From a virus (lineage: Duplodnaviria > Caudoviricetes), in the IMG/VR virus record IMGVR_UViG_2863231158_000001: a stretch of DNA of 64,000 bases; one strand, written 5' to 3'. The notes below the pieces were generated by a model. It had not been told where the DNA came from. It did not search any database and saw nothing but the letters and a program-made list of their open reading frames with translations. Made by a program: the position numbers and the translations under genes. This document shows positions 3,349 through 25,542 of this stretch, piece after piece (position 1 is the stretch's first letter; each line of letters begins with the position of its first letter).

Positions 3349-3606
3349 ATGAGCACAGTATCCGAGACGGCAACGGCGCCGTCGACCCTGCCCGAGCAGA
3401 GCATCCGCATCACCCTCGCCGTCGAGATCATGATCGACCTCGACACCGGCCGCCCCATGCTCCTCGCCAGCACCGACGCCAACGAAGGCGACATCCACGA
3501 AGTCACCCCCGACGAGTTCCTCGCCCTCGCCCACCAGGCCCGCGCCGAGATCGACCGCATGGCCCGCCTCGCCCTCACCCACGCCCGACAGGCGGTGCGG
3601 TCATGA
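3349..3606 (+). CDS. Hypothetical early protein
   Basis: Coupled to the next gene by an ATGA overlap; GC3-rich codons. Confidence 0.65.
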   Translation: MSTVSETATAPSTLPEQSIRITLAVEIMIDLDTGRPMLLASTDANEGDIHEVTPDEFLALAHQARAEIDRMARLALTHARQAVRS

Positions 3607-7982: not shown

Positions 7983-7988
7983 CGAACA

Positions 7989-8192
7989 TGACGAGATTGG
8001 TGAGATTGGCTCCGACCTGCGGTTTCTTGCGCACCTGTCACTGACGAGATTGGTGAGATTGGTGACGAGATTGAGGAGCCCATTCTCACCATTCTCGTCA
8101 CCCCGATCCCCAATCTCGTCACCATTCTCGTCACCGCAAAACAGCAGGTCAGATCCATTCTCACCAATCTCATCAATCAAAATTGTGTGTAA
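7989..8192. repeat. Putative phage replication origin: iterons in two opposed blocks plus an AT-rich tract
   Basis: GAGATTG x5 on + (7993, 8002, 8046, 8055, 8067); CA(A/T)TCTC x6 (8081, 8090, 8111, 8123, 8156, 8165); directly after the helicase. Confidence 0.75.
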
Positions 8193-8207
8193 GGGAGACG
8201 GACGATC

Positions 8208-8633
8208 ATGGGGCAACATCATCCCGGCGAATGCTCCTGTCCGGAATGCCGCACTCGGGCCCGCCTGGCAGCCCCGACCCTGTATGGCTTCATCGGCCGA
8301 CGGGCCGGCGAGCCCGAAACCGCCCAGCAGGTCTTCGCCTGGTGCCCTTGGTGCGCCAACTGGCACCGGCACGGCGACCGAACTAACCAACCTGGCGACG
8401 TCCTCCACCGGTCCCCGCACTGCGCCACCGGCACTCCCGGGCCCTACGAAGAGACCGGCTACCTGATCGCCGTCACGAACATCCCCCTGAGCGAGGTGTG
8501 GGGACAGATGAGGCGGTCTTCAGACGCCCAACGGCTTGCCATCGGAGACGGGCGAGTCACACCGGCTATCGAGCGACTGCGCGCCCAGTTGCTGCCCATC
8601 CTGCGGCCCCAGCACCATGGCGGGCGAACGTGA
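8208..8633 (+). CDS. Cys/His-rich hypothetical protein
   Basis: CSCPEC, WCPWC..WHRH. Confidence 0.65.
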   Translation: MGQHHPGECSCPECRTRARLAAPTLYGFIGRRAGEPETAQQVFAWCPWCANWHRHGDRTNQPGDVLHRSPHCATGTPGPYEETGYLIAVTNIPLSEVWGQMRRSSDAQRLAIGDGRVTPAIERLRAQLLPILRPQHHGGRT

Positions 8634-8845
8634 ACGTCGACGACGTCATAGCCGAGCGGATAGCCGCAGCCCGCCGCCGCATCGAAGCGGCCAAGAAGCG
8701 CCGCGCCGCCCTCAACGCCTCCCGTCAGCGCGGCCTCGCCATCCGGCACGCCGCCAAGCTCCGCAACCAGGCCGGCGCCCGCGCGGCCAACGGAACTGCG
8801 GGGGTCACTCCGACCCCCGCAAACAGCACCGAGGAGAACCAGTGA
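8630..8845 (+). CDS. Small basic hypothetical protein
   Basis: GTG start coupled to the previous stop. Confidence 0.55.
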   Translation: MNVDDVIAERIAAARRRIEAAKKRRAALNASRQRGLAIRHAAKLRNQAGARAANGTAGVTPTPANSTEENQ

Positions 8846-9231
8846 CCGACATCGACCTGACGACCCGGGCCCTTGAGCCCGTCTCCCAGTTCGTCCTCAC
8901 CACCTCCCACGGCGACAACGACCCGCACCGCCTGCTCGCTTTCCACCGCACCTTCGGCGCGGCCATGGAGGCATACGAGATCCGGTACCACCAAGCTCGC
9001 CACCACGAAGAGCAGCCCGAGGCCACCGCCCGCGAGGAAGCCCTGTACGCCGCGCTCGCCGCAGCCGGGCGCCCCTACGCTGCTGCCGCCCTCAGCCGAG
9101 CCGCCAGCGTTCTCGGCGACAAGTTCAACGAGACCACATTCCTGGCACTCGGCGACACCGCCGCCGCGCTCGACCTGGCCATCGTCGAAGACCTCAACGG
9201 GGCCAACGGCACGGGCGAGGACGACGCCTGA
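8842..9231 (+). CDS. Hypothetical protein
   Basis: GAGGAG RBS, GTG start. Confidence 0.6.
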
Positions 9232-9331
9232 CCCGCACGACACCGGCCTGCCCCGACGCAACCGGGCCCGGCCTCCCACCCAGCACCCCAGGTGCTCCAG
9301 ATGGAACACCTCTCCACCGAAGGAGTCCGCC

Positions 9332-9823
9332 ATGTCTGGCGAGACAGTGATCACGGTCGTCGGCAATCTGGTCGATGATCCCGAGCTGCGCTTCACCCCG
9401 GCCGGCGCCGCCGTCGCCAAGTTCCGTATCGCATCCACCCCGCGCCGCTTCAACAAGACGACGAACGCTTGGGAAGACGGCGACGCCCTGTTCCTCACCT
9501 GCTCGGTGTGGCGGCAGGCCGCCGAGAACGCCGCCGAGTCCCTCACCCGCGGGATGCGCGTCATCGTGCAGGGCCGCCTCAAGCAGCGCTCCTACGAGGA
9601 CCGGGAAGGCGTGAAGCGCACCGTCTACGAGCTCGACGTCGACGACGTCGGCCCGTCCCTGGCCCGCGCCACCGCGAAAGTCACCAAGAACCCGGCCGGT
9701 GGCGGGCACCCGGCAGCTGACCCAAATGGGTCACCTGACCCGTGGGCGAGCGCCCGGCCCGCGAACGGCCAGCAGCAGCCGGCCGGGCAGAGTGCGGGGT
9801 ACTCCGATGAGCCCCCTTTTTGA
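9332..9823 (+). CDS. ssb: Single-stranded DNA-binding protein
   Basis: [36 protein letters not shown]; acidic tail DEPPF. Confidence 0.95.
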
Positions 9824-9850
9824 TCAACGCTGCCCCGGCGAGGAGACACC

Positions 9851-10474
9851 GTGAACGCGTGCGGACTTTGCGAACGGCCGTCGGAGCACAGCTACCTGTG
9901 CCCCGGCTGCGCCCGCGGCCTGGCCGAGAGCCTCGACCAACTGCCGGTCCTGCACGACGAGCTGGTCGAGTGTCTGGTGCCGCGCCGGTACGGCTTCGGT
10001 GACATCGTCGCCACCAGGGGCGCGGCGGGCCCGCGGTCCCCGCTCGACGAGGACGTCCTCGACGAGATGAACAGCGGGCACATGGCGGCCGTCGTGCACC
10101 TGTGGCGGGTGGACGTACAGCGGGTGCGCTGGCCCTCGCACGGGGAGCCACCGCCCGCCGGGCTGGCCGCGGACTGCCGGTGGCTGGCGATGGAACTCAA
10201 CTGGATCGCCGCCGAGTACGTGGCCGCCGGGGACCTGGCGCGCGAGGTGAGCGACCTGGAGCGCGACGCCCGCTCGATCGTCGGCGATCCGGCGCCGCGG
10301 CCGCAGCGGCTCGGCACGTGCGTGGCGGTCGACACCGGGGGCGTCGTGTGCGGGGCCGTCATCAAGCGCATGCCGGGGCAGACCCGGCTCCGGTGCCGGT
10401 GGTGCGGCTACACCTACGAGACCGCGCAGGACTGGATGCGCCTTCAGCATTTTCAGCCGGAAGAAGTAGCGTGA
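9851..10474 (+). CDS. Zn-finger phage protein (possible late regulator)
   Basis: CGLC...CPGC at the N-terminus; C...C...CRWC at the C-terminus. Confidence 0.7.
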   Translation: MNACGLCERPSEHSYLCPGCARGLAESLDQLPVLHDELVECLVPRRYGFGDIVATRGAAGPRSPLDEDVLDEMNSGHMAAVVHLWRVDVQRVRWPSHGEPPPAGLAADCRWLAMELNWIAAEYVAAGDLAREVSDLERDARSIVGDPAPRPQRLGTCVAVDTGGVVCGAVIKRMPGQTRLRCRWCGYTYETAQDWMRLQHFQPEEVA

Positions 10475-10479
10475 AATCC

Positions 10480-10508
10480 TTGCGTCAAACCCCCGGGTTG
10501 GATACCTT
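10480..10508 (+). promoter_or_regulatory. Sigma70-type promoter of the transfer cassette with a palindromic operator in the spacer
   Basis: TTGCGT-N17-TACCTT, spacer contains AACCC-CC-GGGTT, ATG 7 nt downstream. Confidence 0.55.
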
Positions 10509-10515
10509 ACTGGGG

Positions 10516-10758
10516 ATGGAACCGCAACCCTGGCGGGAGCGGATACGCGACGAGGACAAGCTGTTGGAGCAGCTCAACCAACTCGCCTCCCAGGCCGCCG
10601 ACCGCCGCGCTCAAGCGCTGCTCGACGGCGTGGACGAACTCGGCACGATCGCCGACGTCGCCCGCGACCTCGGCAAGAGCTGGACCGCCGTCGACAAGGC
10701 GATCAAAAAGTACGAGAGCAAGAAGGCGTCCACCACAGACGCCCCCACAACCGAATAG
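10516..10758 (+). CDS. Small HTH regulator (Kor-like role inferred)
   Basis: GTIADVARDLGKSWTAVDKAIKK HTH; first gene of the cassette. Confidence 0.7.
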   Translation: MEPQPWRERIRDEDKLLEQLNQLASQAADRRAQALLDGVDELGTIADVARDLGKSWTAVDKAIKKYESKKASTTDAPTTE

Positions 10759-10854
10759 ACGAGGGCCGGACAGCAGCTCTCAGGTGTTGGAGCACCCGAG
10801 GCGCGCGCACCGCCCGACCCTCTACCGAACATCCTGACTAGACCAGGAGTCGGC

Positions 10855-11016
10855 ATGACCGATCATGTCGCGGGCCGTTCCGTGCCCGCAAGTTCCCTAC
10901 CGTCCCGGCGTCTCGTCGCTGCGGGCATCATCCGCCGCACCCCGGGCCGCACCCTCACAGTGCGCGCCACCCCGGCGGGCGTCACCGGCATCATCCGCAA
11001 GGCGGTGACCCGGTGA
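10855..11016 (+). CDS. 53-aa basic peptide (below the ORF-track cutoff)
   Basis: AGGAG RBS; MTDHVAGRSVP...; GTGA overlap with the next gene. Confidence 0.55.
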   Translation: MTDHVAGRSVPASSLPSRRLVAAGIIRRTPGRTLTVRATPAGVTGIIRKAVTR

Positions 11017-11213
11017 CCCACACGGCCATCCACCCTGTGGATAACCCAACCCCGCCCAGCACCCTCACCACCGCGGTCCACGTCGCGCAGCAGATGCTCG
11101 GCGCCTACGGCAGCAGCAGCCGCGACGGCTTCGACTACGCCGAGGCCTACGGCGCCCTCCGCGAATCCCTGCGCATCCTGCTCCGCGCCGTCGAGGCGGG
11201 TGAGAACGCATGA
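11013..11213 (+). CDS. Small plasmid/AICE-type hypothetical protein
   Basis: Coupled on both sides; YGALRESLRILLRA helix. Confidence 0.65.
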   Translation: MTHTAIHPVDNPTPPSTLTTAVHVAQQMLGAYGSSSRDGFDYAEAYGALRESLRILLRAVEAGENA

Positions 11214-11938
11214 GGTACCCACACCTGCCTGCCTACGGGCCCACCGAAGCCCACGCCGACGAGGACGCCAGGCCCGACGTCGTCGTGCGTGTCGCCTACG
11301 CCTTGGACCGTGAGCAGCTGCTGGCGGCCCTGTCGATCGGCTTCACGGAGCTGGACCCGGACCGCGCGCCTGAGGACCTGACGGTCGACGAGGTGCGGCG
11401 GGAGGTCGAGGGCTGGCTGGCCGCGCAGGGGATCATCGAGCTTGAGCGCTATGTGATCCAGGGGCAGCTGACCGCGTACCCGCCCAAGCAGCAGGCCGTG
11501 ATGGATGCGCTTGCCGCCGCCCTGGTCCGCGCGTATCCGCCGCCTCCCGCCGAGGAGCCGGACACCGGCCCCCGCTACGGCGACGGCACCGTGAACGTGC
11601 ACACGCGCGACGCCGGACGCATCACGCTGCGCGAGCCCCGGTGGTGCATCGGCGAGCACCGCGGCGGCGAGTACCGCGTCGACGTCCACCATATGGGCGC
11701 CACCCAGCACACGCGGTTCCACACCCCCATGGGCCCGGCCTATGTCGCCCTGAGTGCGGCGCAGAGCCCCCTCTCATCCCAGCCGCAGCCGGAGCTCCAT
11801 GCGGAGGTTTCGGGCAGCTGGTCGATGACGTGCGACACGCACGTCGCGCGGGCCGCCGACGCCCTCGAAGAGATGGCCGCTCACCTGCGCGGTCAGCAAG
11901 CCCTACTCGCTCAGCTCGAGGACGGAGGCCCTCGGTAA
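11210..11938 (+). CDS. Hypothetical protein with C-terminal EPxWC..H (DUF6907-like) domain
   Basis: TLREPRWCIGEH...HHMG. Confidence 0.65.
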   Translation: MRYPHLPAYGPTEAHADEDARPDVVVRVAYALDREQLLAALSIGFTELDPDRAPEDLTVDEVRREVEGWLAAQGIIELERYVIQGQLTAYPPKQQAVMDALAAALVRAYPPPPAEEPDTGPRYGDGTVNVHTRDAGRITLREPRWCIGEHRGGEYRVDVHHMGATQHTRFHTPMGPAYVALSAAQSPLSSQPQPELHAEVSGSWSMTCDTHVARAADALEEMAAHLRGQQALLAQLEDGGPR

Positions 11939-12183
11939 TGCTCAAGAAGACACGAGCCCGGCGCGCCGCCGCTGTGCGCCACCGCCAGCTGCTCGACACC
12001 GCCGAGCGAGTCGTCCGCCGCCACATCCTCGAGGGGCAGTCCGGCAGCGACGCCACTCCCGCCGAGATGGTCGCTCTCGCGTTTGGCCGCCTCGCTCTGC
12101 ACATCGACGAGGACGAGGCCCGCGACTACCTCAACGCTGTCCTCGTCGAGCGCGGATACCCGCTCCCCGGGGGTGCCCAGTGA
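11938..12183 (+). CDS. Small hypothetical protein
   Basis: TAATG overlap, GGAGG RBS. Confidence 0.6.
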   Translation: MLKKTRARRAAAVRHRQLLDTAERVVRRHILEGQSGSDATPAEMVALAFGRLALHIDEDEARDYLNAVLVERGYPLPGGAQ

Positions 12184-13289
12184 GCACCCGCGAACTCACC
12201 CGCCCCCAGAAGGGCATGCTGGCGGCCGCCGCCGTCCCGATGCTCGCCGTCGGCGGCTTCGGCGCCTGGGGCACCTACACCAACGTCGTCACCGAGTTCC
12301 ACCGTGCCGCGACCGCCATGGGCGTCGTCGCCGCCGGCGAGGGCCTCACCCTCGTCCTGGCGCTCACCATGCTGGCCCTGACCCTCCTCGGGCAGGCCAC
12401 GCCCCGCCCTGTCCACATCGGCCTGTGGCTGGCCCCGGTCGCCGCCTCCGGTGTCGGCATCTCCATCGCCGACACCGTCACCGAGGCCGTCGTCTACGCC
12501 GCCACCCCGCTCGCCATGAGCGGCGCCGCCGAGGGCCTCGGCCTGATTGCCCGCCGCATCGTCATCTACACCACCGGCATCGACGCCGAAGCACGCCGCC
12601 GCATCGCCGACACCGTGCAGCGCTTGGCCTACGAGCAGGCCGTGGCCGAGCGGCACCCCGACGAGGACAAGCGCGAGGCCGCGCTGCGCAAGTCCTGGAA
12701 GCTCGCCCAGGACATCGGCCGCGACGACCCCGAGCTGGCCGAGGGCCTCGTCGCAGTACAGCGCGAGCGCCTGAGGCAGGGAGCCGACGGGGCCTTGGCG
12801 GGCATGCTCACCGCGGCGCCCGCCCCGAAGCAGGTCGGCCCCGCCCGGCAGGAAACAGCCGAGGAAGTCCTGCGCCGGAAGCTCGCCACGATGGGCGCCG
12901 AGGATGCGGTGCGCCTCGTGCGTGATGCGCACCCGGATGCGCCACTGGCCGAACTCGTGGAGATCTGCAACGACCACGGTGTGCACGTCACTCCCGTACA
13001 GGTCGCTGTCATCCTCGACCAGCGGCCCGAGCAGCACACCGTGTATCGACAGGATGCACCTGATGCGCCGCTGGTCAGCGGTCTGCCGCTCGTCACCGTC
13101 GAGGGCGCCGTCGTCGAAGCTGCATCCTTCCTCGGCCCGGACGCCAAGGCCCGCCAGATCTCCGAGCATCTCGCTCGCCACCGGCGCCTCGTCGTCGCCG
13201 AACCGTACATCCGCACCGCACTCTCCCGCGAAGCCAAGCGCCAGCAGGGCCAGGCCCCGGCCAAGCCGATGGAGGGCGGATACGCATGA
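12180..13289 (+). CDS. Spd-like multi-pass membrane conjugal transfer protein
   Basis: Three to four N-terminal hydrophobic helices followed by a helical/coiled-coil region, as in Streptomyces SpdB2-type proteins; upstream of TraB. Confidence 0.7.
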   Translation: MSTRELTRPQKGMLAAAAVPMLAVGGFGAWGTYTNVVTEFHRAATAMGVVAAGEGLTLVLALTMLALTLLGQATPRPVHIGLWLAPVAASGVGISIADTVTEAVVYAATPLAMSGAAEGLGLIARRIVIYTTGIDAEARRRIADTVQRLAYEQAVAERHPDEDKREAALRKSWKLAQDIGRDDPELAEGLVAVQRERLRQGADGALAGMLTAAPAPKQVGPARQETAEEVLRRKLATMGAEDAVRLVRDAHPDAPLAELVEICNDHGVHVTPVQVAVILDQRPEQHTVYRQDAPDAPLVSGLPLVTVEGAVVEAASFLGPDAKARQISEHLARHRRLVVAEPYIRTALSREAKRQQGQAPAKPMEGGYA

Positions 13290-13462
13290 TGCGCATCATC
13301 ATCGGCATCACCCTCGGCGTGCTCTACATCCTGTGGCCGCCCCTCCCCGCCGCCACCGCCGCCATCCTCGGCTGGCTCATCTCCCAGCCACTCGTGATCG
13401 CCTTCGTGCTCGGCGCCGTCGCCCGCCCGCACCTCCACATGCCGAAGGGGTGGACAAAGTGA
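13286..13462 (+). CDS. 58-aa hydrophobic Spd-like membrane peptide (below the ORF-track cutoff)
   Basis: MMRIIIGITLGVLYILWPPL...LVIAFVLGAVA; coupled on both sides. Confidence 0.65.
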   Translation: MMRIIIGITLGVLYILWPPLPAATAAILGWLISQPLVIAFVLGAVARPHLHMPKGWTK

Positions 13463-13788
13463 ACGAGCCCCTCGCTAAAGCCGAGGCCGCCGTGACCGAG
13501 GCGGAGAGCAACACCGCCGCCGTGCAGCTGGCGCTCGCCGCCGTCGAACTCGCCAAGGCCGCCCAGCAGCCGCAGCACCAGGGATGCCAGCACACGCCAC
13601 AGCAGCAGTTCGACGCCAAGAAGTGGCTCACCATCGGCGGCCTCGCCTGCGTGGGCGGCTGCGTCGTCTGCGCCCTCGCCCTGGCGTTCGCCATCGCGGC
13701 CATCGCCGTCGCTATCGGCGGCACCTGCGCGACCGCCTGCCTGCTCATCCTCCGCTCCATCTGGCGCGGGCACCGGAAGGGGCGCTGA
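13459..13788 (+). CDS. SpdD-like membrane protein
   Basis: Long hydrophobic stretch LALAFAIAAIAVAIGGTCATACLLILRSIW. Confidence 0.7.
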   Translation: MNEPLAKAEAAVTEAESNTAAVQLALAAVELAKAAQQPQHQGCQHTPQQQFDAKKWLTIGGLACVGGCVVCALALAFAIAAIAVAIGGTCATACLLILRSIWRGHRKGR

Positions 13789-13789
13789 C

Positions 13790-14008
13790 ATGGGCATCTT
13801 CCGCCGCAAAGAGAACGCGGCCGCCGACGAGGCGCGCACCGACCGACTGCTCAACGGCGTCGATCAGGCGTACACCGCCCGCACCGGCCACGTCGGCGGC
13901 GCGGCCAGCCCCGACCTCGACGAGTTCGAGGAGACCGTCCTCCACGCCGTCGCCCGCGACCCCGAAGCCCCGTACCCGCCGCCCGGCCACGGCTACCCCC
14001 GCCGCTGA
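13790..14008 (+). CDS. Small hypothetical protein
   Basis: MGIFRRK start; operon context. Confidence 0.55.
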   Translation: MGIFRRKENAAADEARTDRLLNGVDQAYTARTGHVGGAASPDLDEFEETVLHAVARDPEAPYPPPGHGYPRR

Positions 14009-14074
14009 CCGGCCCGCCGTGCGGTGGGGCCGGACAGCCCGGCCCGACGAATCGACCCGGAAGGGAACCCCGCT

Positions 14075-14242
14075 ATGCCTGACCCGCAGCACGCTGTCGA
14101 CGCGGCCAAGGTCACCGCGCAAGCCATCAACGACTACGGCCCCGACTCCCCAGAGGCCCTCGGCGCGATGGAGTCCGCCCTCGACGCCGTTCGCCAGGCC
14201 CGCGCCGCTGGCTACACCGACGAGGAGATCCGCCGTGGCTGA
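14075..14242 (+). CDS. Small hypothetical protein
   Basis: AAGGGA RBS; ARAAGYTDEEI. Confidence 0.55.
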   Translation: MPDPQHAVDAAKVTAQAINDYGPDSPEALGAMESALDAVRQARAAGYTDEEIRRG

Positions 14243-14399
14243 GATCAAGTACACCGCCTGGGAGCGGATGCAGATCGCCGCCATCGAGGCCCGCGGCCTC
14301 AAGGACTCCGCTGCCCTCGGCTGGGACGCCCACATCGAACGGCGCCGCGCGCTCAAGCGCATCGAGGGCAAGGCCCGCCGCCGCGCCAACCGCACGTAG
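14235..14399 (+). CDS. Small basic hypothetical protein upstream of TraB
   Basis: GTG start overlapping the previous gene. Confidence 0.55.
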   Translation: MAEIKYTAWERMQIAAIEARGLKDSAALGWDAHIERRRALKRIEGKARRRANRT

Positions 14400-14486
14400 C
14401 TCTGCCCCGGGGGCGGCGCACCACGACCAAGAAGTAGAGCCGCCCCCGGGCCCCGGACCGCCCAACAGAACGACCGGAAGGCCAGC

Positions 14487-16613
14487 ATGACCGATCTTCA
14501 CGCACCGGCCAACACCGAGACGCCGGACGCACCCACACCCGCCCTGACATCCGAGCCCGGCAGCTCTCCGGCCCCCGCGCCCGCCGAGGCAGGACCCCGG
14601 CGCCGTGTCCGTATCGACCACCTGCGTCGCGTGATCGTCGAGGCCCGCCAGCACACCGCCTACCGCTTCACCGTCCGCCACAGCGCCTACCTCACCGGCG
14701 GCGCCCGCGTCCTTTCCCGCCGCGCCTGGGACTCCCGCACCACCGCCCGCCACGAGCGCATGATGCGCATCGCCGAAGCAGGCGGCAACGAAGAGCTCGT
14801 ACAGAAGTGGGAACAGCGCGCCTACGCGTTCAGGTTCGCCCGCCACCGGCGCCGCGTCGAACTCCTCCAGATGGCCATCAACGCGCCCAAGGCCATCGCC
14901 ACCGCCTCAGCGGCCGGCGCGGGCACCCTCCTGCTGCTCGGCTGCATGCTGGCCGCCGCCACCGACGACCTCAACGACGTCCTCACGCCGCTCAACACCG
15001 TCGTCTCCTTCGTGGGCTGGGTGGCGTTCATCGGCGGCATCGTCTGGGAGCCCATGCTCTACTCCCTGCCGCTCCTGGCCCTGGCCGGGGTGTGGGCCGT
15101 CGGCCGCAACCGGAAGACCGCGCCCTCATGGGCGCTGCCCGCGGACACCGGCGAGCTGGACGTGCTGCCCGACGAGAACGCCATCATGCGGGCCCTGGGC
15201 AAGCTGTCGATTCCCCAGCTCAACGCGGCTATCAAGGAAGGGTGGACGCCGCGCTGGGTGCAGCCCACGACCCGCCTCGGCAACGGCTACCACACCCAGC
15301 TGCAGCTGCCGATGGGCGTCACCGTCGAGATGGTCAACGCCAAGAAGAACGTCCTCGCACACAACCTGATGCGCAAGCCCGTCGAGACCTGGCCCACCGA
15401 GCCGCCCAACATGCCCGGCGTCCTCGACCTGTGGGTCGCCGACCAAGGCTCCCTCAACGGCGTGGTGCCGCCGTGGCCACTGCTGACCGAAGGCGTCACC
15501 GACTACTTCAAGGGCGTCCCGGTCGCCGTGTCCCAGCGGGGCGAACCCATCATCGGCAAGCTCATGGCCGCCAACTGGATCGTCGGCGGCATCATGGGCT
15601 CCGGCAAGACGTCCATCGTGGTCGCGCTGCTCCTCGGTGCCATCCTCGACCCGCTGGTCATCGCCGAGGTCTACGTGATGGCCACCAACGTCGACTACGA
15701 CCCGCTCAAGCCCCGCCTGCGTACCCTCGTCAAGGGCGACGACCCCGAGCAGCTGCGCGCCGCTCTCGACGCCCTGCGGGCCCTGTCCAACGAGGTCACC
15801 GAGCGCGGCAAGCTTCTGGAGGACCTCGGCGGCGAGTCGACCAAGCTCACCCGCGAACTGGCCCTGAAGGACCCGCGGATGCGGCCCAAGGTCGTCGTCT
15901 TCGACGAGTGCCACGAGCTGTTCATGAGCAAGGACTACGGCAAAGAGGCCAGTGAACTGGCCATCCGCGTCATGAAGAAGGCCCGCAAGGTCGGCATCAC
16001 TCTCATCTGGGTCACCGTCTCCCCGACTGCCGACAGCATCCCGCGTGACGTCACCCGCAACACCAGCCATCGCGTGGCGTTCGCGGTCGGCGACCAGGTC
16101 GCCAACGACGGCCTCCTCGGCTCCGGCAAGTACAAGGCCGGGATCCGCGCCACCGAGCTCGTCCCCGGCCAGGACGTAGGCACCGCCGTCACCTACGGCT
16201 TCACGTCAAAGCCGTTCGAGATCATCCGGTCCCACTACGTCGCCCGCGATCCGGAGAAGGGCATCGATGAGGTGACGCCGGTCGTCGAGCGCGCCCTCAA
16301 GGCCTACGAGAACGACGACGGCGTGTGGGAGGTCCCCGGCACACAGCCCGTCGACCACCTCGCCGACGTCGCCGCCGTCCTCGGCGACGAACTCCGCATG
16401 CTCGTCCAGGAGGTCCTGCACCGGCTCGCCGAGCGCACCCCGGGCGCCTACCGAGACTGGGGGCCGACCGATCTCAAGAAGGCCCTGGAACCCTACGGCG
16501 CCGAGCAGTACAAGTCCGCCGGACGCATGGTCATCTCCCGCGACCGCGTCCACGAAGCCATCCTCACCCGGCTCGCTGAGGACACCGGCGACGAGGGAGG
16601 CGACGAAATCTGA
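14487..16613 (+). CDS. traB: TraB-type FtsK/SpoIIIE dsDNA translocase
   Basis: N-terminal membrane anchor (two hydrophobic helices), Walker A GIMGSGKT, Walker B VVVFDECH, ARKVGI, small C-terminal domain; spd/kilB context. Confidence 0.85.
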   Translation: MTDLHAPANTETPDAPTPALTSEPGSSPAPAPAEAGPRRRVRIDHLRRVIVEARQHTAYRFTVRHSAYLTGGARVLSRRAWDSRTTARHERMMRIAEAGGNEELVQKWEQRAYAFRFARHRRRVELLQMAINAPKAIATASAAGAGTLLLLGCMLAAATDDLNDVLTPLNTVVSFVGWVAFIGGIVWEPMLYSLPLLALAGVWAVGRNRKTAPSWALPADTGELDVLPDENAIMRALGKLSIPQLNAAIKEGWTPRWVQPTTRLGNGYHTQLQLPMGVTVEMVNAKKNVLAHNLMRKPVETWPTEPPNMPGVLDLWVADQGSLNGVVPPWPLLTEGVTDYFKGVPVAVSQRGEPIIGKLMAANWIVGGIMGSGKTSIVVALLLGAILDPLVIAEVYVMATNVDYDPLKPRLRTLVKGDDPEQLRAALDALRALSNEVTERGKLLEDLGGESTKLTRELALKDPRMRPKVVVFDECHELFMSKDYGKEASELAIRVMKKARKVGITLIWVTVSPTADSIPRDVTRNTSHRVAFAVGDQVANDGLLGSGKYKAGIRATELVPGQDVGTAVTYGFTSKPFEIIRSHYVARDPEKGIDEVTPVVERALKAYENDDGVWEVPGTQPVDHLADVAAVLGDELRMLVQEVLHRLAERTPGAYRDWGPTDLKKALEPYGAEQYKSAGRMVISRDRVHEAILTRLAEDTGDEGGDEI

Positions 16614-16757
16614 GGGAGTTCTCCCCACCCGCCTCCCTCACCCGCCTCCCTGTACATGACCTGCGCAAATGGCCAGTCAGGGAGGCGAGGGAGGCAAGGG
16701 AAGACCAGGCCCGGAGGCCGCGAGCATGAGGCCCGGGCTCCCCTCCGGCGCCTCCCT
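16594..16757. repeat. clt-like locus: six copies of 8-mer GCCTCCCT/AGGGAGGC at the traB 3' end
   Basis: AGGGAGGC at 16594, 16679, 16688; GCCTCCCT at 16631, 16644, 16750. Confidence 0.6.
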
Positions 16758-16815
16758 CCCTACGACACGGCAGGATGCACCCACCGCGAACACGCCGCCG
16801 CCCAGAGGGGGACCC

Positions 16816-17319
16816 ATGTGGCCGACCTTGATCGCCGTGCTTGGCACGCTCGCTGGTGCCGCCTTGGCCAGCCTCACCGCGCACTGGACAGACCGCAGCG
16901 CCCGCGCAGCCGAACACCGCCAGCGGGTCCTCGACGCCACCGGGCAGCTCCTCGCCGCTGTGCTGGCGTACCGGGAGGTCTACTGGTTTCAGATCGCCAA
17001 CCTGCGCAATGGCGTGCCTCGGACCAGCGAAGACGTGGCAGCCCTGTTCCGCGCCCGCACAGTCACGACGAACGCCTTCGACCGCCTCGCGCTCACTGCT
17101 GCCGATTCAGCCCTGCTCGCCGTCGCCGCAGAGGCCGCATGGTCGGCCATCGAGCTGGCCGACATCGAACTCAGCGCGGTCACCGGTGGACAGTTCAGCA
17201 CCACCGTCGAGGCCGCACTCGCCGCCGGACGGGAGCGGAGCCGGGACGCCCACACAGCCCTGCGCGAGGCAGGCGTCCGGTACATCCACGGCGCAGCACC
17301 CATCCACGGCGACGGCTAG
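16816..17319 (+). CDS. kilB: KilB-like protein
   Basis: MWPTLIAVLGTLAGAALA N-terminal helix followed by HR...LLAAVLAYR, recalling Streptomyces plasmid KilB; AGAGGGGG RBS; follows traB. Confidence 0.65.
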   Translation: MWPTLIAVLGTLAGAALASLTAHWTDRSARAAEHRQRVLDATGQLLAAVLAYREVYWFQIANLRNGVPRTSEDVAALFRARTVTTNAFDRLALTAADSALLAVAAEAAWSAIELADIELSAVTGGQFSTTVEAALAAGRERSRDAHTALREAGVRYIHGAAPIHGDG

Positions 17320-17349
17320 CCCACCACCCGACGACCCTGAGGAGCCATC

Positions 17350-17526
17350 GTGAGCAACGACCCCATCGACCACGCACACACCCACGCCGCCTCATGCCCG
17401 ATGATCCTCTGGCCCGAAGGCGGCACCTGCAACTGCGGGCAGATCGAACAGGAGGGCATCGCCGACGCCTCCGCCGACTACCGCCACGACCCGCTCGACA
17501 CGACAGCCTTCGACACCATCGACTAG
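17350..17526 (+). CDS. 58-aa His/Cys peptide
   Basis: GAGGAG RBS; HTHAASCP...CNC. Confidence 0.5.
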   Translation: MSNDPIDHAHTHAASCPMILWPEGGTCNCGQIEQEGIADASADYRHDPLDTTAFDTID

Positions 17527-17590
17527 GCCCCTCCCAGTGAGCATCCGCATACAGCCACGAGACCACCGGCCGCCACGAGAGGATGACCCC

Positions 17591-17860
17591 ATGCCCGAGG
17601 AACGCACCGCCGTCCTGCTGGTCGACAGCTACACCACGACGTGCAGCAAGTGCCGCAACGGCGCCTTCACCAAGGACATCCGCCACGACCGAATCGCGAC
17701 CGGATGGGGGACCCCCGACCCGCGCGACAAGCCGTGCGGCGCCCGCTTCGTCGCCATCTCCACCAAACGCCAGGAATACACGCAAGACGACCTGCACCAG
17801 CTGCGCCCTGACCTCCCTGCCTACGAGGCTGGCAAGGCGCCACGAGACCTCACCACCTGA
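17591..17860 (+). CDS. Small Cys-containing hypothetical protein
   Basis: GAGGA RBS; CSKC...H...CGARF. Confidence 0.55.
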   Translation: MPEERTAVLLVDSYTTTCSKCRNGAFTKDIRHDRIATGWGTPDPRDKPCGARFVAISTKRQEYTQDDLHQLRPDLPAYEAGKAPRDLTT

Positions 17861-17883
17861 TTAGGTCGCGGCATCATGGGGGC

Positions 17884-18084
17884 ATGGAGTCGCAGATGAT
17901 CCGGCCCGGCCACCTCACCGCCCACCAGACCGCGACCGTCCTCGGCATCACCCTCGACGGCGTCCGCCAGCTCGTCCGCCGCGGCCACCTCACCCGCTCC
18001 GGCGGCACCCCCCGCCAGCCCTGGTACGCACTCGCCGACGTCCAGGCCCTCGACACCAAGCGGCGCACACGCGACGCCGCTTGA
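17884..18084 (+). CDS. MerR/HTH_17-like DNA-binding protein
   Basis: LTAHQTATVLGITLDGVRQLVRRGHL...YALADV. Confidence 0.75.
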   Translation: MESQMIRPGHLTAHQTATVLGITLDGVRQLVRRGHLTRSGGTPRQPWYALADVQALDTKRRTRDAA

Positions 18085-18150
18085 CCGCAGGTCAGCGCCG
18101 TGTCACGATCCCGGTGTACAACTGTGTCCTCAAACGGACGCCGCAGACAC

Positions 18151-18193
18151 ACGACGAAGCCCCGGCCCGCATCCCCGGCCGGGGCTTCGTCGT
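18151..18193. terminator. Long hairpin between the early/transfer genes and the late operon
   Basis: ACGACGAAGCCCCGGCC ... GGCCGGGGCTTCGTCGT. Confidence 0.7.
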
Positions 18194-18209
18194 ACTTCGG
18201 GGGGACTCC

Positions 18210-18389
18210 ATGCCGCGCATCCAGATCCTCGAACTGCCCGCCGAGCGCCACGGAGACGACGTGACGACGCCGTTCGTTCTCGTCGTCGACCAGTGGACAT
18301 CGCCCCTGCACGGTCACCTGACGAAACTTGCCGAGAAGAGCGGAGCCCGCGCCGTCATGGTGTTCGAAGAGACCATGGACGTGGCCTAG
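18210..18389 (+). CDS. Small hypothetical protein
   Basis: MPRIQILELP...TPFVLVVDQ. Confidence 0.6.
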   Translation: MPRIQILELPAERHGDDVTTPFVLVVDQWTSPLHGHLTKLAEKSGARAVMVFEETMDVA

Positions 18390-18392
18390 CCC

Positions 18393-18764
18393 ATGCCCCG
18401 CAAAGCCCTCCAGGTCTGCCCCACCCCCGGATGCCCCACCCTCACCACGACAGGCCGCTGCGAGACCTGCCAGGCGCGCGCCACACGCACGCGCGCGAGC
18501 GCCACATCCAAGGGCTACGACGCCAGATGGGCCCGCACCAGCTCGGCCTACCTGCGAGCACACCCCTACTGCGAGTGCGACGAGTGCGAGGCGCTGCCCC
18601 CGCTGCTCAGGTCACGAGCCACCGAGGTCAACCACCGAGACGGACTCGGACCAAGGGGACCAAGGGGCCATGACTGGACGAACCTCCAGGCCATGACCAA
18701 GGCCCACCACTCACGCGAGACAGCGAAGCACCAGCCCGGAGGCTGGAACGATCGCGATCAGTGA
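18393..18764 (+). CDS. Packaging-associated HNH endonuclease
   Basis: CPTPGC...RCETC; HPYCEC; EVNHRDG...NLQAM...HH; upstream of terminase. Confidence 0.85.
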   Translation: MPRKALQVCPTPGCPTLTTTGRCETCQARATRTRASATSKGYDARWARTSSAYLRAHPYCECDECEALPPLLRSRATEVNHRDGLGPRGPRGHDWTNLQAMTKAHHSRETAKHQPGGWNDRDQ

Positions 18765-18975
18765 CTCACAGGCATCAGTGCAGGTCAGAGGCCTGCCGAG
18801 ATACCCATGTGGGGCAAAACCGCAGCTCAGAGGGGTGGGGGTGGACCCCTTCGGTCTAGGGGTCCCGGAACGCCGGGGAGGGCTCCGGGAAGTCCGCCAG
18901 GTTCAGAAGACCTTGATCGTCACGCAAGGTGACGGACGTCGGTGCTGCGCAACGCAGCGGCGAGGAGTGATCGCT

Positions 18976-19455
18976 ATGCCCCGTGGTGGTGCCCGTGTCG
19001 TGTCCGGTCCGCCGCCGGACCCCAACGCGCTGCGCCGGAATCGCCCGTCGGACAAGGCGGGATGGACGACGCTCCCGGCCGAGGGCCGCGCCGGCGTCGC
19101 GCCGGTGTTCCCGCTGGAGATGATGACGCCGCGCGAGGACGAGCTGTGGGTGGACCTCTGGTCCCGGCCGCAAGCCGTCGCGTGGGAGGCCCTGGAGCAG
19201 ACCTACGAGGTCGCGCTGTTCGTGCGCACGCTCGCGCAGGCCGAGAAGCCCAACGCCCGCGTGGACGTGCAGCGCATCATCCGCAGCTACCTGGATTCGC
19301 TCGGCCTGTCCGTGCAGGGGATGCTGCGCAACCGGTGGAAGATCGGCCCCGCCACCGAGGCCGACGAGCCCGCGCTGGCGCCGGAGGCGGCGCCGCGGCG
19401 ACGGGCGAGCGCGCGGGACCGGCTCAAGGTCGTGCCCCGTGACGAAGGCGCCTGA
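18976..19455 (+). CDS. Terminase small subunit
   Basis: MPRGGARVVSGPPPDPNALRR; LGLS...LRNRW; GAGGAG RBS. Confidence 0.8.
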   Translation: MPRGGARVVSGPPPDPNALRRNRPSDKAGWTTLPAEGRAGVAPVFPLEMMTPREDELWVDLWSRPQAVAWEALEQTYEVALFVRTLAQAEKPNARVDVQRIIRSYLDSLGLSVQGMLRNRWKIGPATEADEPALAPEAAPRRRASARDRLKVVPRDEGA

Positions 19456-21076
19456 CCACGGGTTCGTCGTCGATTTCCCCACCCTGTGGATCGTCCCGGA
19501 CTGGATCGAAGCGCACTGCCCGGTGCCGGACGGGTTCCGCGCGGGCGAGTCCCTCGAGCTGTATCCGTGGCAACTGTGGTGCACGGTCAACCACTACCGC
19601 ATCAAGGCGACGGCGACGCGCGGGCAGCTGGCGCCTGCGTTCCACTACCGGCGCTCGCAGGTGGTGGCGCCGCAGAAGACCGGCAAGGGCCCGTGGTCGG
19701 CGACCATCGTCTTGGCCGAAGCCGTGGGCCCGGTCGTGTTCAACGGGTGGGCCCGCGGCGGCGAACGCTTCCGGTGCGCGGATCACGGCTGCTCGTGCGG
19801 CTGGTGGTACGAGTACGAGGCGGGCGAGCCCATGGGCATGCCGTGGCCGAGTCCGTTGATCCAGCTGACGGCGACGTCCGAGGACCAGGTGGCCAACGTC
19901 TACCGGCCGCTGCAGAGCATGGTGAAGCAGGGCCCGCTCGGCGACCTGATGCGGGTGGGCGAGGAGTTCGTGCGCATCGGCGAGCGCGGCCGCATCGACG
20001 TCGTCACGTCCTCGGCCCTGTCCCGGCTCGGCAACCCGATCACGGCAGCCGTGCAGGACGAGACGGGCACGTGGACCGAGGCGAACAAGCTGCGCCGGGT
20101 CGCGGAGACGCAGCGGCGCGGCCTGGCCGGGATGGGCGGCCGGGCGCTGGAGACCACGAACTCGTGGGACCCGTCCGAGGACTCGGTGGCGCAGCGCACC
20201 AGCGAGGCCAAGGCCCGCGACATCTTCAAGTACCACCCGCAGGCACCCAGGACGCTGTCCTACAGCAACAAGCGGGAGCGCCGGAAGATCCACGCGGTGG
20301 TGTACGCGGGGTCGACGCACGTGGACCTGGACGCGATCGAGGCCGAGGCCGTCGAGTTGATGGAGAAGGACCCGGCGCAGGCCGAGCGGTTCTTCGGCAA
20401 CCGCTGCGTCGCAGGCAGCGCCGGGTGGCTGGACGGCTCGAAGTGGGCGGCGAAGGCGAAGCCGCGGCGGGTGCGCGCGTACACGCGGATCGTGCTCGGC
20501 TTCGACGGCTCGGACATGGACGACTGGACGGCGATCCGCGCGGAGACGATGGACGGCTACCAGTTCACGCCGGTGTTCGGCGCGAACGACGAGCCGACGA
20601 TCTGGAACCCGGCCGACCACGGTGGGCAGGTCCCGCGCGCGGAGGTCCGCGCGGCAATGGACCAGTTGATGAACCGTTACGACGTGGTGCGCCTGTACGC
20701 GGATCCGCCGTACTGGGACACCGAGGTCGATGAGTGGGTGGACCTGTACGGCGAGGAGCGGGTGATCCGCTGGTACACGCGCCGCATGGTCCAGATGCAT
20801 GCGGCGGCCGAGCGGCTGAAGACGGACGTAGTCAAGCGGAACACCGAGGGGGCGCGGGCGGCCGCGTTCACGCACGACGGGTGCCCGCTGACGCAGTCGC
20901 ACATCGAGAACACGCGCATGGCCGAGCGCCCCTCCGGGCTGTACGTGCTGCGCAAGGCGAGCCCTGCCCAGAAGATCGACAGTTCGGTGGCGTCGGTGCT
21001 CGCGCACGAGGCGCTCGGCGACGTCATCGCGGCGGGCCTGGCCGAGCGAGAAGAGTCCTTCTACTACTCGGCGTGA
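19439..21076 (+). CDS. Terminase large subunit
   Basis: LYPWQ, PQKTGKG Walker A, VQDE Walker B, LGFDGS nuclease motif, KID. Confidence 0.92.
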   Translation: MTKAPDHGFVVDFPTLWIVPDWIEAHCPVPDGFRAGESLELYPWQLWCTVNHYRIKATATRGQLAPAFHYRRSQVVAPQKTGKGPWSATIVLAEAVGPVVFNGWARGGERFRCADHGCSCGWWYEYEAGEPMGMPWPSPLIQLTATSEDQVANVYRPLQSMVKQGPLGDLMRVGEEFVRIGERGRIDVVTSSALSRLGNPITAAVQDETGTWTEANKLRRVAETQRRGLAGMGGRALETTNSWDPSEDSVAQRTSEAKARDIFKYHPQAPRTLSYSNKRERRKIHAVVYAGSTHVDLDAIEAEAVELMEKDPAQAERFFGNRCVAGSAGWLDGSKWAAKAKPRRVRAYTRIVLGFDGSDMDDWTAIRAETMDGYQFTPVFGANDEPTIWNPADHGGQVPRAEVRAAMDQLMNRYDVVRLYADPPYWDTEVDEWVDLYGEERVIRWYTRRMVQMHAAAERLKTDVVKRNTEGARAAAFTHDGCPLTQSHIENTRMAERPSGLYVLRKASPAQKIDSSVASVLAHEALGDVIAAGLAEREESFYYSA

Positions 21077-21085
21077 GGGGGTCGC

Positions 21086-23502: not shown

Positions 23503-23549
23503 CCTGGCGCAACGCCCGGTCCACACCGCACCCGCAACGGGAGATCAGC

Positions 23550-24299: not shown

Positions 24300-24314
24300 C
24301 CCAAGGAGGGCCCC

Positions 24315-25541: not shown

Positions 25542-25542
25542 C

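Follow-up and report, generated by a model that had tools for sequence, protein, structure and literature searches.

The analysed stretch of 64,000 nt (here called the window) carries, from its first base to about 38-41 kb, a prophage which is well supported as that of a siphovirus-type temperate Streptomyces phage (Table 1). The integrase gene lies at the left end of the prophage and is truncated at its 3′ end by the start of the record. Since the record begins within this gene, attL lies outside of it and the att-bounded unit is not visible in the window. There is good support that the prophage is complete in appearance and that a transfer module sits between its replication and packaging modules; as described before, the flanking modules were found to be uninterrupted, with the integrase, primase, helicase and SSB genes on the left and the packaging, head, neck, tail and amidase genes on the right. 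A Pfam scan of the window gave no match to RepSA, RepAM or prim-pol, the Toprim primase, AAA_25 and SSB proteins being present instead, and no ParA/ParB families were found among the scanned genes, which included some of the small ORFs. Terminal repeats were detected in none of ten related viral records checked. The hairpin in front of the late region (-42.8 kcal/mol, z -4.9; none of 200 shuffles folded equally well) is a possible terminator.

Table 1. Features of the prophage and its putative transfer module (positions refer to the window)
Feature	Position	Strand	Basis or remark
Tyrosine integrase of the prophage	1-1464	-	Pfam Phage_integrase 2.4e-7, Phage_int_SAM_3; ORF open to base 1
Phage replication module	5956-9823	+	Toprim primase, AAA_25 helicase-like, SSB
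Toprim primase	5956-6816	+	Pfam Toprim_2/3
AAA_25 helicase-like protein	6813-7982	+	Pfam AAA_25 6e-18
SSB	9332-9823	+	Pfam SSB 1.2e-30
Small HTH protein	10516-10758	+	Weak Pfam HTH_29/HTH_23
242-aa protein, C-terminal DUF6907	11210-11938	+	Pfam DUF6907 5.1e-12
369-aa integral membrane protein, 3-4 TM	12180-13289	+	Hydropathy; phrog_16651 5.5e-40
58-aa membrane protein, 2 TM	13286-13462	+	Hydropathy
109-aa membrane protein, 1 TM	13459-13788	+	Hydropathy
TraB/Tra-type membrane-anchored FtsK-fold dsDNA translocase, 708 aa, C-terminal winged-helix-like domain	14487-16613	+	
clt-like array, six AGGGAGGC 8-mers, orientations + - - + + -	16594-16757	.	8-mer count
Three small non-conserved ORFs: 167 aa (N-terminal TM), 58 aa, 89 aa	16816-17860	+	Between array and phage HTH gene
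66-aa protein, helix-turn-helix-like sequence	17884-18084	+	tblastn conservation
Perfect 17-bp GC-rich hairpin	18151-18193	+	Inverted-repeat pair; between early/middle and packaging genes
Late region	18393-38370	+	Packaging, head, tail, lysis genes
123-aa Cys/His-rich ORF	18393-18764	+	First ORF of late region
TerS, then TerL	TerL 19439-21076	+	Late region
Portal (SPP1-type), VG15, scaffold, capsid	within late region	+	
Neck/tail: adaptors, tail terminator, major tail protein	within late region	+	
Tape measure	29289-31421	+	
1108-aa tail protein, then beta-helix protein	within late region	+	
Amidase (lysis)	36437-37150	+	
Small ORF	37424-37732	+	Possible holin by position only; without family support
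Collagen-repeat protein	end part of late region	+	

The module is organised as an operon of co-directional, overlapping genes (11210-16757), whose final gene encodes the 708-aa ATPase and is followed by the 8-mer array. The operon noted in the preliminary description was borne out by plus-strand ORFs with stop/start overlaps at seven junctions (11013/11016, 11210/11213, 11938, 12180/12183, 13286/13289, 13459/13462 and 14235/14242). The proposed HTH gene at 10516 was recovered with weak Pfam matches below the cut-offs (HTH_29, E 2e-4; HTH_23, E 2e-3). Like 9851-10474, it belongs to the phage lineage and lies outside the block shared with AICEs; its homologues were confined to loci that carry TerL or are too short for classification (e.g. 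L009 and L019). The first gene in common with non-phage relatives (tblastn: L027, L030, L038, L048) is the DUF6907 gene. In line with the earlier statement that the cassette lacks its own integrase or Rep, no such family matched any of the 11 cassette ORFs scanned, a set that left out the ORFs 10855-11016, 14075-14242, 14235-14399 and 17350-17526.

The 708-aa protein was identified as a membrane-anchored FtsK/SpoIIIE ATPase by Pfam PF01580 (FtsK_SpoIIIE, 26.6 bits, cut-off 24), phrog_1358 ('FtsK/SpoIIIE-like', 1.3e-18) and TM helices predicted at about residues 137-205 in its N-terminal part (hydropathy segments 137-155 and 165-183). Its AlphaFold2 model (pLDDT 87.8) comprises helices at 102-208, with long ones at 102-159 and 163-208, a motor at 230-610 and a C-terminal domain at 624-701. 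Foldseek gave the FtsK motor 2IUS as the best PDB fold (7.7e-17, about 430 columns) and the conjugation coupling protein TcpA at 3.4e-14. Walker A (G373-K374) and Walker B (E474) residues were invariant among 46 aligned relatives. The C-terminal domain, modelled with a pLDDT of 90 and the topology H-b-H-H-b-b-H, had no PDB match at E <= 1e-3 in Foldseek; its best weak fold matches were mostly winged-helix DNA binders (SSV1 F-93, E 0.02).

Profiles, blastp and the tree all placed the ATPase with plasmid and AICE Tra/TraB proteins and not with FtsK, as had been anticipated. By tblastn against PLSDB it matched 36 records, 35 of them from actinomycetes, the best being small integrase-bearing AICE-type plasmids (33-36% identity over 76-92% of the query). 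Similarity to TraB of pSVH1 was significant (blastp 2.5e-18; 27% over 295 aa), and that to AICE Tra proteins extended over nearly the full length (pCM32, 3.9e-81; plasmid NZ_CP108827, 2.9e-82). A chromosomal FtsK was rejected, the NCBIfam equivalog NF007615 scoring 27.1 bits against a cut-off of 1566 with a match limited to residues 469-544. Judged by sequence, the ATPase is a member of the Tra/TraB family found in plasmids and AICEs of actinomycetes. None of the cultured phages in INPHARED matched it at 1e-5, and in Dubu, the nearest cultured phage by TerL, no such gene is annotated in the 22.0-39.5 kb half.

The repeat cluster noticed previously was confirmed: all six AGGGAGGC copies of the window are located inside 164 bp, while shuffled sequences are expected to contain 3.6 copies scattered across the whole 64 kb. 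The array begins 20 nt before the stop codon, so that its first copy falls in the final 20 nt of the pump gene, and the middle four repeats form a long imperfect hairpin directly after the stop (-47.3 kcal/mol, z -4.0), which could simply be a terminator. This layout matches that of the proven clt of pWTY27, of which 16 bp lie inside traA and 159 bp follow it (PMC3583192), likewise a short repeat array starting inside the 3′ end of the pump gene. Unlike in the TraB-clt plasmids, the repeats of the window occur in both orientations. In 13 of 16 viral loci the positions of the array were conserved, and 46 of 51 genome loci had at least three copies of one 8-mer there. In six canonical-AICE loci every enriched 8-mer (three or more copies) was GGGGAGGC or the one-base-shifted AGGGGAGG. 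Four of these six loci were represented in the protein alignment, and in three of the four the C-terminal domain was replaced, the preceding motor sequence being alike. The conserved position and the copies changing together in some AICE relatives agree with the earlier clt-like reading and support a cluster that behaves like clt, which we regard as its candidate function.

Upstream of the pump gene, three membrane genes had been described as Spd-like. This stood as far as the three membrane ORFs, their position and their homology to plasmid transfer operons are concerned; an assignment to named Spd families did not hold. The 369-aa protein is 50-59% identical to proteins on 36 Streptomyces/Kitasatospora plasmids, one of which is annotated as 'conjugal transfer protein'; these relatives adjoin a large ORF, lying directly upstream of it, in GntR-headed operons. 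It showed no similarity to SpdB2 of pSVH1 (blastp, best E 0.42), and the annotated spdB gene of NZ_CP108827 gave no tblastn match; by these comparisons it was not assigned to the SpdB2/SpdB families. The 109-aa protein matched an ORF in the spd region of NZ_CP108827 (1.7e-4) and, in many of the related loci, ORFs that precede the ATPase gene. Thus, the 369-aa protein is a candidate for a functional 'spread' protein from a family of plasmid transfer operons.

A homologue of the 369-aa protein also exists in Woodruffvirus (BayC gp69, 38% identical, E 2e-31), one or two genes away from an FtsK-like ATPase. FtsK-like DNA translocase genes are annotated in the phages TP1604, YDN12, BayC, Mischief19 and Geonosis of this genus. 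The Woodruffvirus ATPase has no significant blastp similarity to that of the window, Mischief19 gp79 matches pSVH1 TraB at 5e-14, and, differing from the prophage, the genus is virulent (Geonosis), the authors suggesting a replication role for the FtsK-like gene and describing no clt. Because a virulent phage possesses such a pair, pumps of this kind may serve lytic growth otherwise than by transfer. As a motor oriented by the 8-mers, the pump of the window might instead handle phage DNA inside the cell, where it would clear or segregate replicated DNA at septa, load spore compartments or resolve concatemers. An FtsK-fold motor would suit this task, and FtsK too is loaded under 8-mer guidance. 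However, the nearest ATPase relatives are AICE Tra proteins, which serve transfer between cells, the array forms a single clt-like cluster beside the gene and not a genome-wide skewed motif, and the membrane partner comes from a plasmid transfer operon family, so that we consider intracellular handling unlikely.

The ORFs following the array were almost unmatched in related loci (g26 only in L022 at 35%, g28 only in L046 at 53%). The first of them (16816-17319) had been called KilB-like, a designation that found no support: apart from the single match among 71 loci (L022), its relatives (tblastn, PLSDB) were genes of 12 large Streptomyces plasmids, 'hypothetical protein' or unannotated and none named KilB. 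The 66-aa protein behind them, in contrast, had homologues (tblastn, 46-82%) in all nine TerL-bearing genome loci and 11 of 17 viral loci, and in none of the 45 non-phage genome loci. In TerL-bearing loci it lies 0.1-0.6 kb (median 0.2) past the ATPase match, with the exception of L053 (1.7 kb).

The combination of ATPase and 8-mer array recurred in 71 related loci, comprising 17 viral-contig and 54 genome loci, the latter divided into nine TerL-bearing and 45 non-phage loci. The search for prophages with a TraB-type pump and a terminase, which the preliminary description had suggested, yielded 24 of 71 loci with TerL downstream of the ATPase (15 of 17 viral-contig and 9 of 54 genome loci). 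A second prophage (G001), with a serine integrase and HK97-type portal and capsid, carries the module at the same place. The distance from ATPase to TerL was 1.6-7.9 kb in 14 viral loci; in another (L018) TerL is encoded 0.65 kb downstream on the opposite strand. The TerLs fall into at least four clades and are 25-37% identical across clades, the ATPases 57-77%. These data support, at the sequence level, that tailed prophages repeatedly carry the cassette as an integral component. Many non-phage loci are classic AICEs with the order GntR, DUF6284, SpdB, RRQRL, DUF6257, Tra, prim-pol, RepAM, Xis and Int. As revealed by tblastn with two plasmid GntR queries, the Kor/TraR-type GntR repressor was absent from all nine phage-type genome loci and present in 14 of the 45 non-phage loci.

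Rows from phage and from non-phage loci are intermixed on the tree of the ATPase, where well-supported branches force at least 13 label changes, and L026, the sister of the window ATPase (82%), has no TerL within 10 kb. Such interleaving could also stem from repeated captures in recent times that brought the phage no function. The module may accordingly be selfish or neutral cargo, an AICE block captured at a mosaic hot-spot, which is inert for the phage or mobilises or competes with co-resident AICEs; cassette gene content does differ among the phages, and cross-talk is possible since AICEs and phages use the same 8-mer. Yet the module is intact and maintained in phages under purifying selection (dN/dS 0.13-0.39 in seven phage-phage pairs), the array is retained in cis in most viral loci, and the slot of the module between the homologues of 9851-10758 and of 17884-18084 is constant over at least four TerL clades and two integrase types. 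We therefore think it improbable that the module is mere cargo.

A role in defence, exclusion or host takeover, by which an FtsK/HerA-like ATPase and its membrane partners would block superinfecting DNA or conjugative elements, was weighed because the P-loop core weakly matched mad8 (9.6e-12) and SspH (3.3e-8) in PADLOC and because FtsK-like proteins belong to the PHROGs category 'moron, auxiliary metabolic gene and host takeover'. These matches are confined to residues 361-543, though, none of nine other cassette and flanking proteins scanned matched PADLOC, and the homology of the ATPase to Tra proteins is full-length. As a defence system would moreover give no role to the conserved cis array beside the gene, this explanation is highly improbable.

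With the TraB-clt(-Spd) systems of plasmids and AICEs the locus shares an FtsK-fold pump that is anchored in the membrane and ends in a putative winged-helix-like domain, encoded after an overlapping operon of small membrane proteins; this ATPase clade and this 8-mer are also present in canonical AICEs. It differs in that the host replicon is a tailed prophage and in that the window lacks a GntR TraR/Kor gene, RepSA/RepAM/prim-pol and a match to named Spd proteins. AICEs are defined by Int, Rep (RepSA, RepAM or prim-pol) and Tra without virion genes (Ghinet et al. 2011, PMC3218068). The element of the window is thus not an AICE: Int and Tra are present, but there is no RepSA/RepAM/prim-pol match and a full virion and lysis module exists. 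Phages that also transfer by a Streptomyces tra gene have been described. The plasmid-phage pZL12 is cited in PMC3583192 as needing a tra gene for conjugal transfer, and pFP4 is a second Streptomyces plasmid-phage (Chen et al. 2012). pZL12/phiZL12 (Zhong et al. 2010) is referred to as 'extrachromosomally replicating' with ParA/ParB (PMC7157519, PMC4487206). By their descriptions both are extrachromosomal plasmid-prophages, in contrast to the integrase-borne element of about 40 kb with its AICE-type Tra clade. A pZL12-type plasmid-phage was rejected on account of the integrase at the left end and the lack of ParA/ParB among the scanned genes. Thoma et al. (2015) proposed that SpdB2 homologues of the phages phiC31 and VWB help phage DNA to spread (PMC4447253). 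These belong to another protein family; the 369-aa protein does not match pSVH1 SpdB2, and phiC31 and VWB were absent from its 15 phage matches. In the light of pZL12, pFP4, the phage SpdB2 homologues and the annotated FtsK-like phage genes, the idea of a dual phage and conjugative element is not wholly unreported. Our literature search found no paper on an AICE-type module in chromosome-integrating tailed prophages.

Taken together, it is well supported that the prophage carries a plasmid/AICE-type DNA-transfer module consisting of the membrane proteins encoded at 12180-13788, a TraB-family pump and a cis 8-mer array. The initial interpretation stood with regard to the Tra/TraB grouping, the clt-like array and the integral, recurrent cassette; the KilB call and the named Spd families found no support. 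For plasmid transfer, TraB and clt in cis are needed, and spreading of the plasmid through the mycelium is the task of the Spd proteins (PMC4447253). By analogy, we hold with moderate confidence that the module would let the phage genome spread through the mycelium without virions. A pump hexamer would dock on the array via its C-terminal domain and, together with its membrane partners, would drive the array-bearing double-stranded phage genome through hyphal cross-walls or hyphal contacts into neighbouring compartments or mycelia, no virions being needed. Since the module runs in the direction of the early genes, lacks the GntR repressor that some of its AICE relatives have and is separated from the packaging genes by a strong hairpin, it would be expressed in the early/middle phase after infection or induction. 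The replicating phage would then spread through the mycelium, and neighbours would possibly be lysogenised. That the phage circle may be transferred 'without lysis', as formerly suggested, is a fair reading. The missing GntR gene in phage-type loci and the analogous pair in a virulent genus favour expression within the lytic/induction programme of the phage, and we consider a lysis-free state under separate regulation less likely.

For Streptomyces phages as a group we suggest, tentatively, that chromosome-integrating tailed members may be widespread dual-mode elements which exchange one TraB-clt module with AICEs in both directions. Such phages might push their own dsDNA through cross-walls or hyphal contacts so that infection or lysogeny spreads without free particles, with the pair of 8-mer and winged-helix domain perhaps setting which pump matches which element.

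The large ATPase of the cassette, which the preliminary description had read as a TraB translocase, was placed by our searches with the Tra proteins of plasmids and of the integrative and conjugative elements of actinomycetes (AICEs). This protein clears the Pfam FtsK_SpoIIIE cut-off and also matches phrog_1358. It resembles TraB of pSVH1, a protein studied by experiment, at 2.5e-18, and two Tra proteins of AICE type at about 3e-82, the latter along almost the whole sequence, whereas the FtsK equivalog model gave 27 bits where its cut-off is 1566, which rules out a chromosomal FtsK. Matches were found in 36 plasmid records, 35 of them from actinomycetes, the best being small plasmids with the gene plan of an AICE (GntR, spd genes, Tra, prim-pol, Rep, Xis, Int); a tblastn search of 50,697 phage records yielded no match at 1e-5. 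Among 1.84 billion representatives, 2200 relatives were detected at E ≤ 1e-3 and 326 at ≤ 1e-30. When pSVH1 TraB itself was compared with phages by tblastn, 87 records were hit; most belong to Mycobacterium cluster and Bacillus phages with an 'FtsK-like' annotation, one to Streptomyces. This tells no more than that phages commonly have FtsK-like genes. An AlphaFold2 model built from 46 relatives (pLDDT 87.8) has long helices in its N-terminal part, then a motor domain and, at the C-terminus, a small domain. The best PDB matches of the motor domain are FtsK motors (7.7e-17), followed by the conjugation coupling protein TcpA. Modelled alone, the C-terminal domain (pLDDT 90) shows a winged-helix-like topology; its PDB matches are weak throughout, the best ones being mostly winged-helix DNA binders. 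We regard the placement in the TraB/Tra family as secure; an intracellular DNA-handling role for a pump with such a motor appears unlikely.

All six copies of the 8-mer AGGGAGGC present in the 64 kb are clustered at the end of the ATPase gene, the first one within its last 20 nt. Since shuffled sequences lead one to expect 3.6 copies scattered across the whole window, simple arithmetic puts this clustering far beyond chance. Position and orientation pattern of the array are kept in 13 of 16 viral loci carrying related ATPases, and at the equivalent place 46 of 51 genome loci contain at least three copies of one 8-mer. In six canonical-AICE loci, every 8-mer enriched in this way (at least three copies) was GGGGAGGC or its one-base-shifted form AGGGGAGG. 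The copies have changed in concert, as expected of a repeated protein-binding word and unlike a mere hairpin. Furthermore, in three of the four variant loci of the protein alignment the C-terminal domain is strongly unlike that of the AGGGAGGC-type sisters, the preceding sequence being nearly the same; a domain swap may thus track the 8-mer variant, which with few independent events is suggestive only. The layout of the array matches that of the proven clt of pWTY27, a TraA-bound site that takes in 16 bp of traA together with the 159 bp after them (PMC3583192). A strong hairpin can form from the middle four copies, which could have a terminator role. A pac or cos site was rejected, as the array travels with the ATPase across at least four clades of the large terminase (TerL) and is present in AICEs without terminase.

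The preliminary description had placed the cassette inside an apparently intact tailed phage, and a complete-looking prophage gene set does surround it. The IMG/VR provirus record has 86.8 kb, of which the window covers the initial 64 kb (G+C about 70%). Genes were called by a custom caller, not a standard tool, from third-position G+C (GC3) and a codon score; those on the plus strand form one long array from left to right. The left attachment site of the prophage falls outside the record.

Features of the window in order of position
Feature	Coordinates	Strand	Remark
Tyrosine integrase	1-1464	-	3′ end cut by the record start
HTH gene, DUF6907 protein	rightward of the integrase	+	DUF6907 protein: 3603-4052
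Toprim primase, AAA_25 helicase-like protein, SSB	between DUF6907 gene and cassette	+	
Left neighbour gene	9851-10474		
Cassette HTH gene	10516-10758		
Coupled ORFs	10855-14399		co-directional
First cassette gene common to non-phage relatives	11210-11938		
Three membrane proteins	12180-13788		first protein: 12180-13289
ATPase	14487-16613		708 aa
8-mer array	16594-16757		164 bp; order + - - + + -
ORF described as KilB-like	16816-17319		
Right neighbour gene (small protein with helix-turn-helix-like sequence)	17884-18084		
Hairpin	18151-18193		perfect, 17 bp
Cys/His-rich ORF	after the cassette	+	as read from the sequence itself
TerS, TerL, SPP1-type portal, VG15-like protein, scaffold, capsid	after the Cys/His-rich ORF	+	TerL: phrog_19179, 1.7e-159
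Head-tail adaptors, tail terminator, major tail protein, tape measure	after the capsid	+	tape measure: 710 aa
1108-aa tail protein, beta-helix protein, amidase, small ORF	after the tape measure	+	tail protein: 31433-34759; small ORF without known family
Collagen-triple-helix repeat protein	37729-38370		after the lysis genes
Host genes: tRNA-Met, two tRNA-Asn, FGGY kinase, ABC transporters, sigma-70 gene	from ~41.2 kb		
FGGY kinase ORF	42545-43816	+	
tRNA-Ala(ggc) call	43177-43250	-	
Sigma-70 gene	47742-49013	-	
Second mobile element	49282-64000		G+C lower, 0.62-0.69
Large serine recombinase	49282-51096		
Second-element ORFs	56639-58883		

Several further observations were made on the record. 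The C-terminal part of the 1108-aa tail protein matches phrog_24476 (2.6e-90), whose annotation is phosphodiesterase. The prophage has two DUF6907 copies: one is a separate 149-aa protein close to the lysogeny region (Pfam 1.1e-15), the other forms the C-terminal half of the protein encoded by the first cassette gene common to non-phage relatives (5.1e-12). The tRNA-Ala(ggc) called by ARAGORN within the FGGY kinase ORF is probably false. Directly after the sigma-70 gene, a second mobile element opens with the serine recombinase, and some of its ORFs have relatives in three related viral loci (L012, L015, L017); the 'provirus' record is therefore a merger of two elements, separated by about 8 kb of host genes.

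The cassette was confirmed as a largely coupled operon, stop and start codons overlapping at seven junctions, and membrane segments were predicted by hydropathy in the three consecutive membrane proteins and in the N-terminal third of the ATPase, in agreement with its proposed membrane anchoring. Family searches with 11 cassette ORFs revealed neither an integrase nor a Rep, in line with the preliminary description, and an AICE nested in the prophage with its own int and rep was discarded. The name KilB is unsupported for the ORF behind the array: its only relatives, on 12 large plasmids, are unnamed; among the 71 related loci it has one match (L022, 35%). The first membrane protein belongs to phrog_16651 and has relatives of 50-59% identity on 36 Streptomyces/Kitasatospora plasmids. 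In the two plasmids examined, the relative is part of an operon of small genes headed by GntR and is closely followed by a large ORF. By blastp, this ORF matches pSVH1 TraB (2e-29) in the S. buecherae plasmid (751 aa), and no Tra protein matched that of the other plasmid (817 aa). The first membrane protein and pSVH1 SpdB2 did not disclose any similarity. The cassette HTH gene and both neighbour genes are confined to phage-type loci and flank the AICE-shared block, which extends from about 11210 to 16757; the hairpin parts this block from the packaging genes. A GntR homologue was found in none of nine phage-type genome loci versus 14 of 45 others. A scan of 9500-19500 for consensus promoters and terminators gave no more sites than shuffled sequences.

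Related ATPases (58-77% identical) were found at 17 loci in a scan of viral contigs. TerL lies downstream in 15 of them, in 14 at a distance of 1.6-7.9 kb, and the other two have no downstream DNA. At least four clades can be told apart among the terminases, with a between-clade identity of only 25-37%; portals were confirmed in two of the clades. Ten hand-picked records out of the 17 are all classed 'provirus' or 'linear', with no terminal repeats. A scan with a single genome for each species yielded 54 loci, almost all of them from Streptomyces, nine of which have terminase and portal downstream (9 of 47 with at least 10 kb of downstream DNA). Many of the remaining loci are, by gene order, canonical AICEs. 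The label noTerL means that no TerL HMM match occurred within the locus, up to 10 kb per side; about half of the loci so labelled were classed as AICE, solely by tblastn with a few plasmid proteins, and the rest are unclassified. L009 bears this label only because of its 1.8 kb of downstream DNA, and L026, the closest relative (82%), adjoins host genes, no phage gene being visible there. On the 15-kb viral contig L018, TerL is on the strand opposite to the ATPase, 0.65 kb downstream of it, and a search for the 8-mer array found none; this record may be rearranged or chimeric.

One phage-type genome locus (G001), extended to 60 kb, proved to be a full prophage. Its left part encodes a serine integrase, a DUF3987 replication protein, SSB and homologues of 9851-10758; then follow the membrane proteins, pump, array and a homologue of the right neighbour gene, and finally terminase, HK97-type portal and capsid, tape measure and amidase. 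The module thus keeps one place in phages differing in integrase type and virion module. No direct repeat longer than 14 bp was shared by the two flanks of G001, which fits a serine integrase and leaves the borders undefined. Between its HTH gene and membrane proteins, G001 carries a gene for a 215-aa GGDEF diguanylate cyclase (L082:3147-3794, minus strand; Pfam 4.8e-30). Since development of Streptomyces is under c-di-GMP control, this gene may be a phage tool altering host development.

In a tree of 68 ATPases, which took in 64 of the 71 loci (seven with a called ATPase ORF below 600 aa were dropped), the phage and non-phage rows are intermingled. At least 13 changes between these two labels are required by well-supported branches, and the sister of the window ATPase is a non-phage locus. 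A module found in both settings might be neutral or selfish cargo, which we hold to be improbable; phage-borne gene pairs gave dN/dS values of 0.13-0.39, rough figures as dS is constrained in high-GC DNA. In two genomes, two ATPases of the clade lie 20-80 kb apart on one contig (L037/L041 and L028/L047), each pair having one phage-type and one non-phage member. The 8-mer is identical in L028, L037 and L041, so that cross-mobilisation between co-resident elements is conceivable; L047 is without an enriched 8-mer.

The module is real, and its concept has precedents. Woodruffvirus phages likewise possess 38%-identical relatives of the first membrane protein, one or two genes away from an annotated 'FtsK-like DNA translocase'. 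One of them, Geonosis, is described as virulent (PMC11536984). In Mischief19 (L004) and BayC (L005) the corresponding pair is located at the extreme right genome end. Mischief19 gp79 matches pSVH1 TraB at 5e-14. FtsK-like genes are mentioned in several descriptions of Streptomyces phages, their function being at most putative. Thoma et al. 2015 (PMC4447253) proposed that SpdB2 homologues of phages, known from phiC31 and VWB, assist the spread of phage DNA. The plasmid-phage pZL12 (Zhong et al. 2010) is reported to combine a lytic cycle with conjugal transfer, for which it needs a tra gene (PMC3583192). The AICE surveys consulted, among them Ghinet et al. 2011 (PMC3218068), treat prophages as exclusions. 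In the literature searched, we found no account of integrating tailed prophages that have an AICE-type Tra-clt module as a recurring component. Reportedly, Chen et al. in 2012 dealt with another plasmid-phage, pFP4.

On plasmids, the clt repeats are bound by TraB or TraA, which pumps double-stranded DNA in unprocessed form; within the mycelium of the recipient this DNA is spread by Spd proteins (PMC4447253, PMC3583192). In the prophages we observed the homology and architecture of the pump, the conserved cis array and the plasmid-type membrane partner, the module recurring under purifying selection. With the array in cis, the phage genome would be the substrate of the pump, which, by analogy, would allow particle-free passage of phage DNA between compartments or hyphae. 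It is reasonable to propose, from the plasmid systems, that the module would serve the phage in transfer. PADLOC also returned matches, as might be expected if the module had a defence function; these were limited to the P-loop core, and such a function is highly improbable. For the transfer function, gene order and the missing repressor favour expression in the phage's own early/middle programme, once infection or induction has taken place. The separate lysis-free state proposed in the preliminary description is less likely but compatible with this programme.

If the module acts on the phage genome, adsorption of free virions would no longer be the only way for phages to spread in mycelial bacteria. 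This would give a new view of plaques, development-based phage containment, lysogenisation and phage-mediated gene flow in Streptomyces. The boundary between AICEs and temperate phages would blur, as one exchangeable transfer module is common to both. Together with one conserved membrane partner, the pump and the array, of which a one-base variant exists in nature, form a compact, testable system. Even should transfer not be borne out, the data show that the annotation 'FtsK-like' in Streptomyces phages also covers genuine proteins of the conjugative Tra family.
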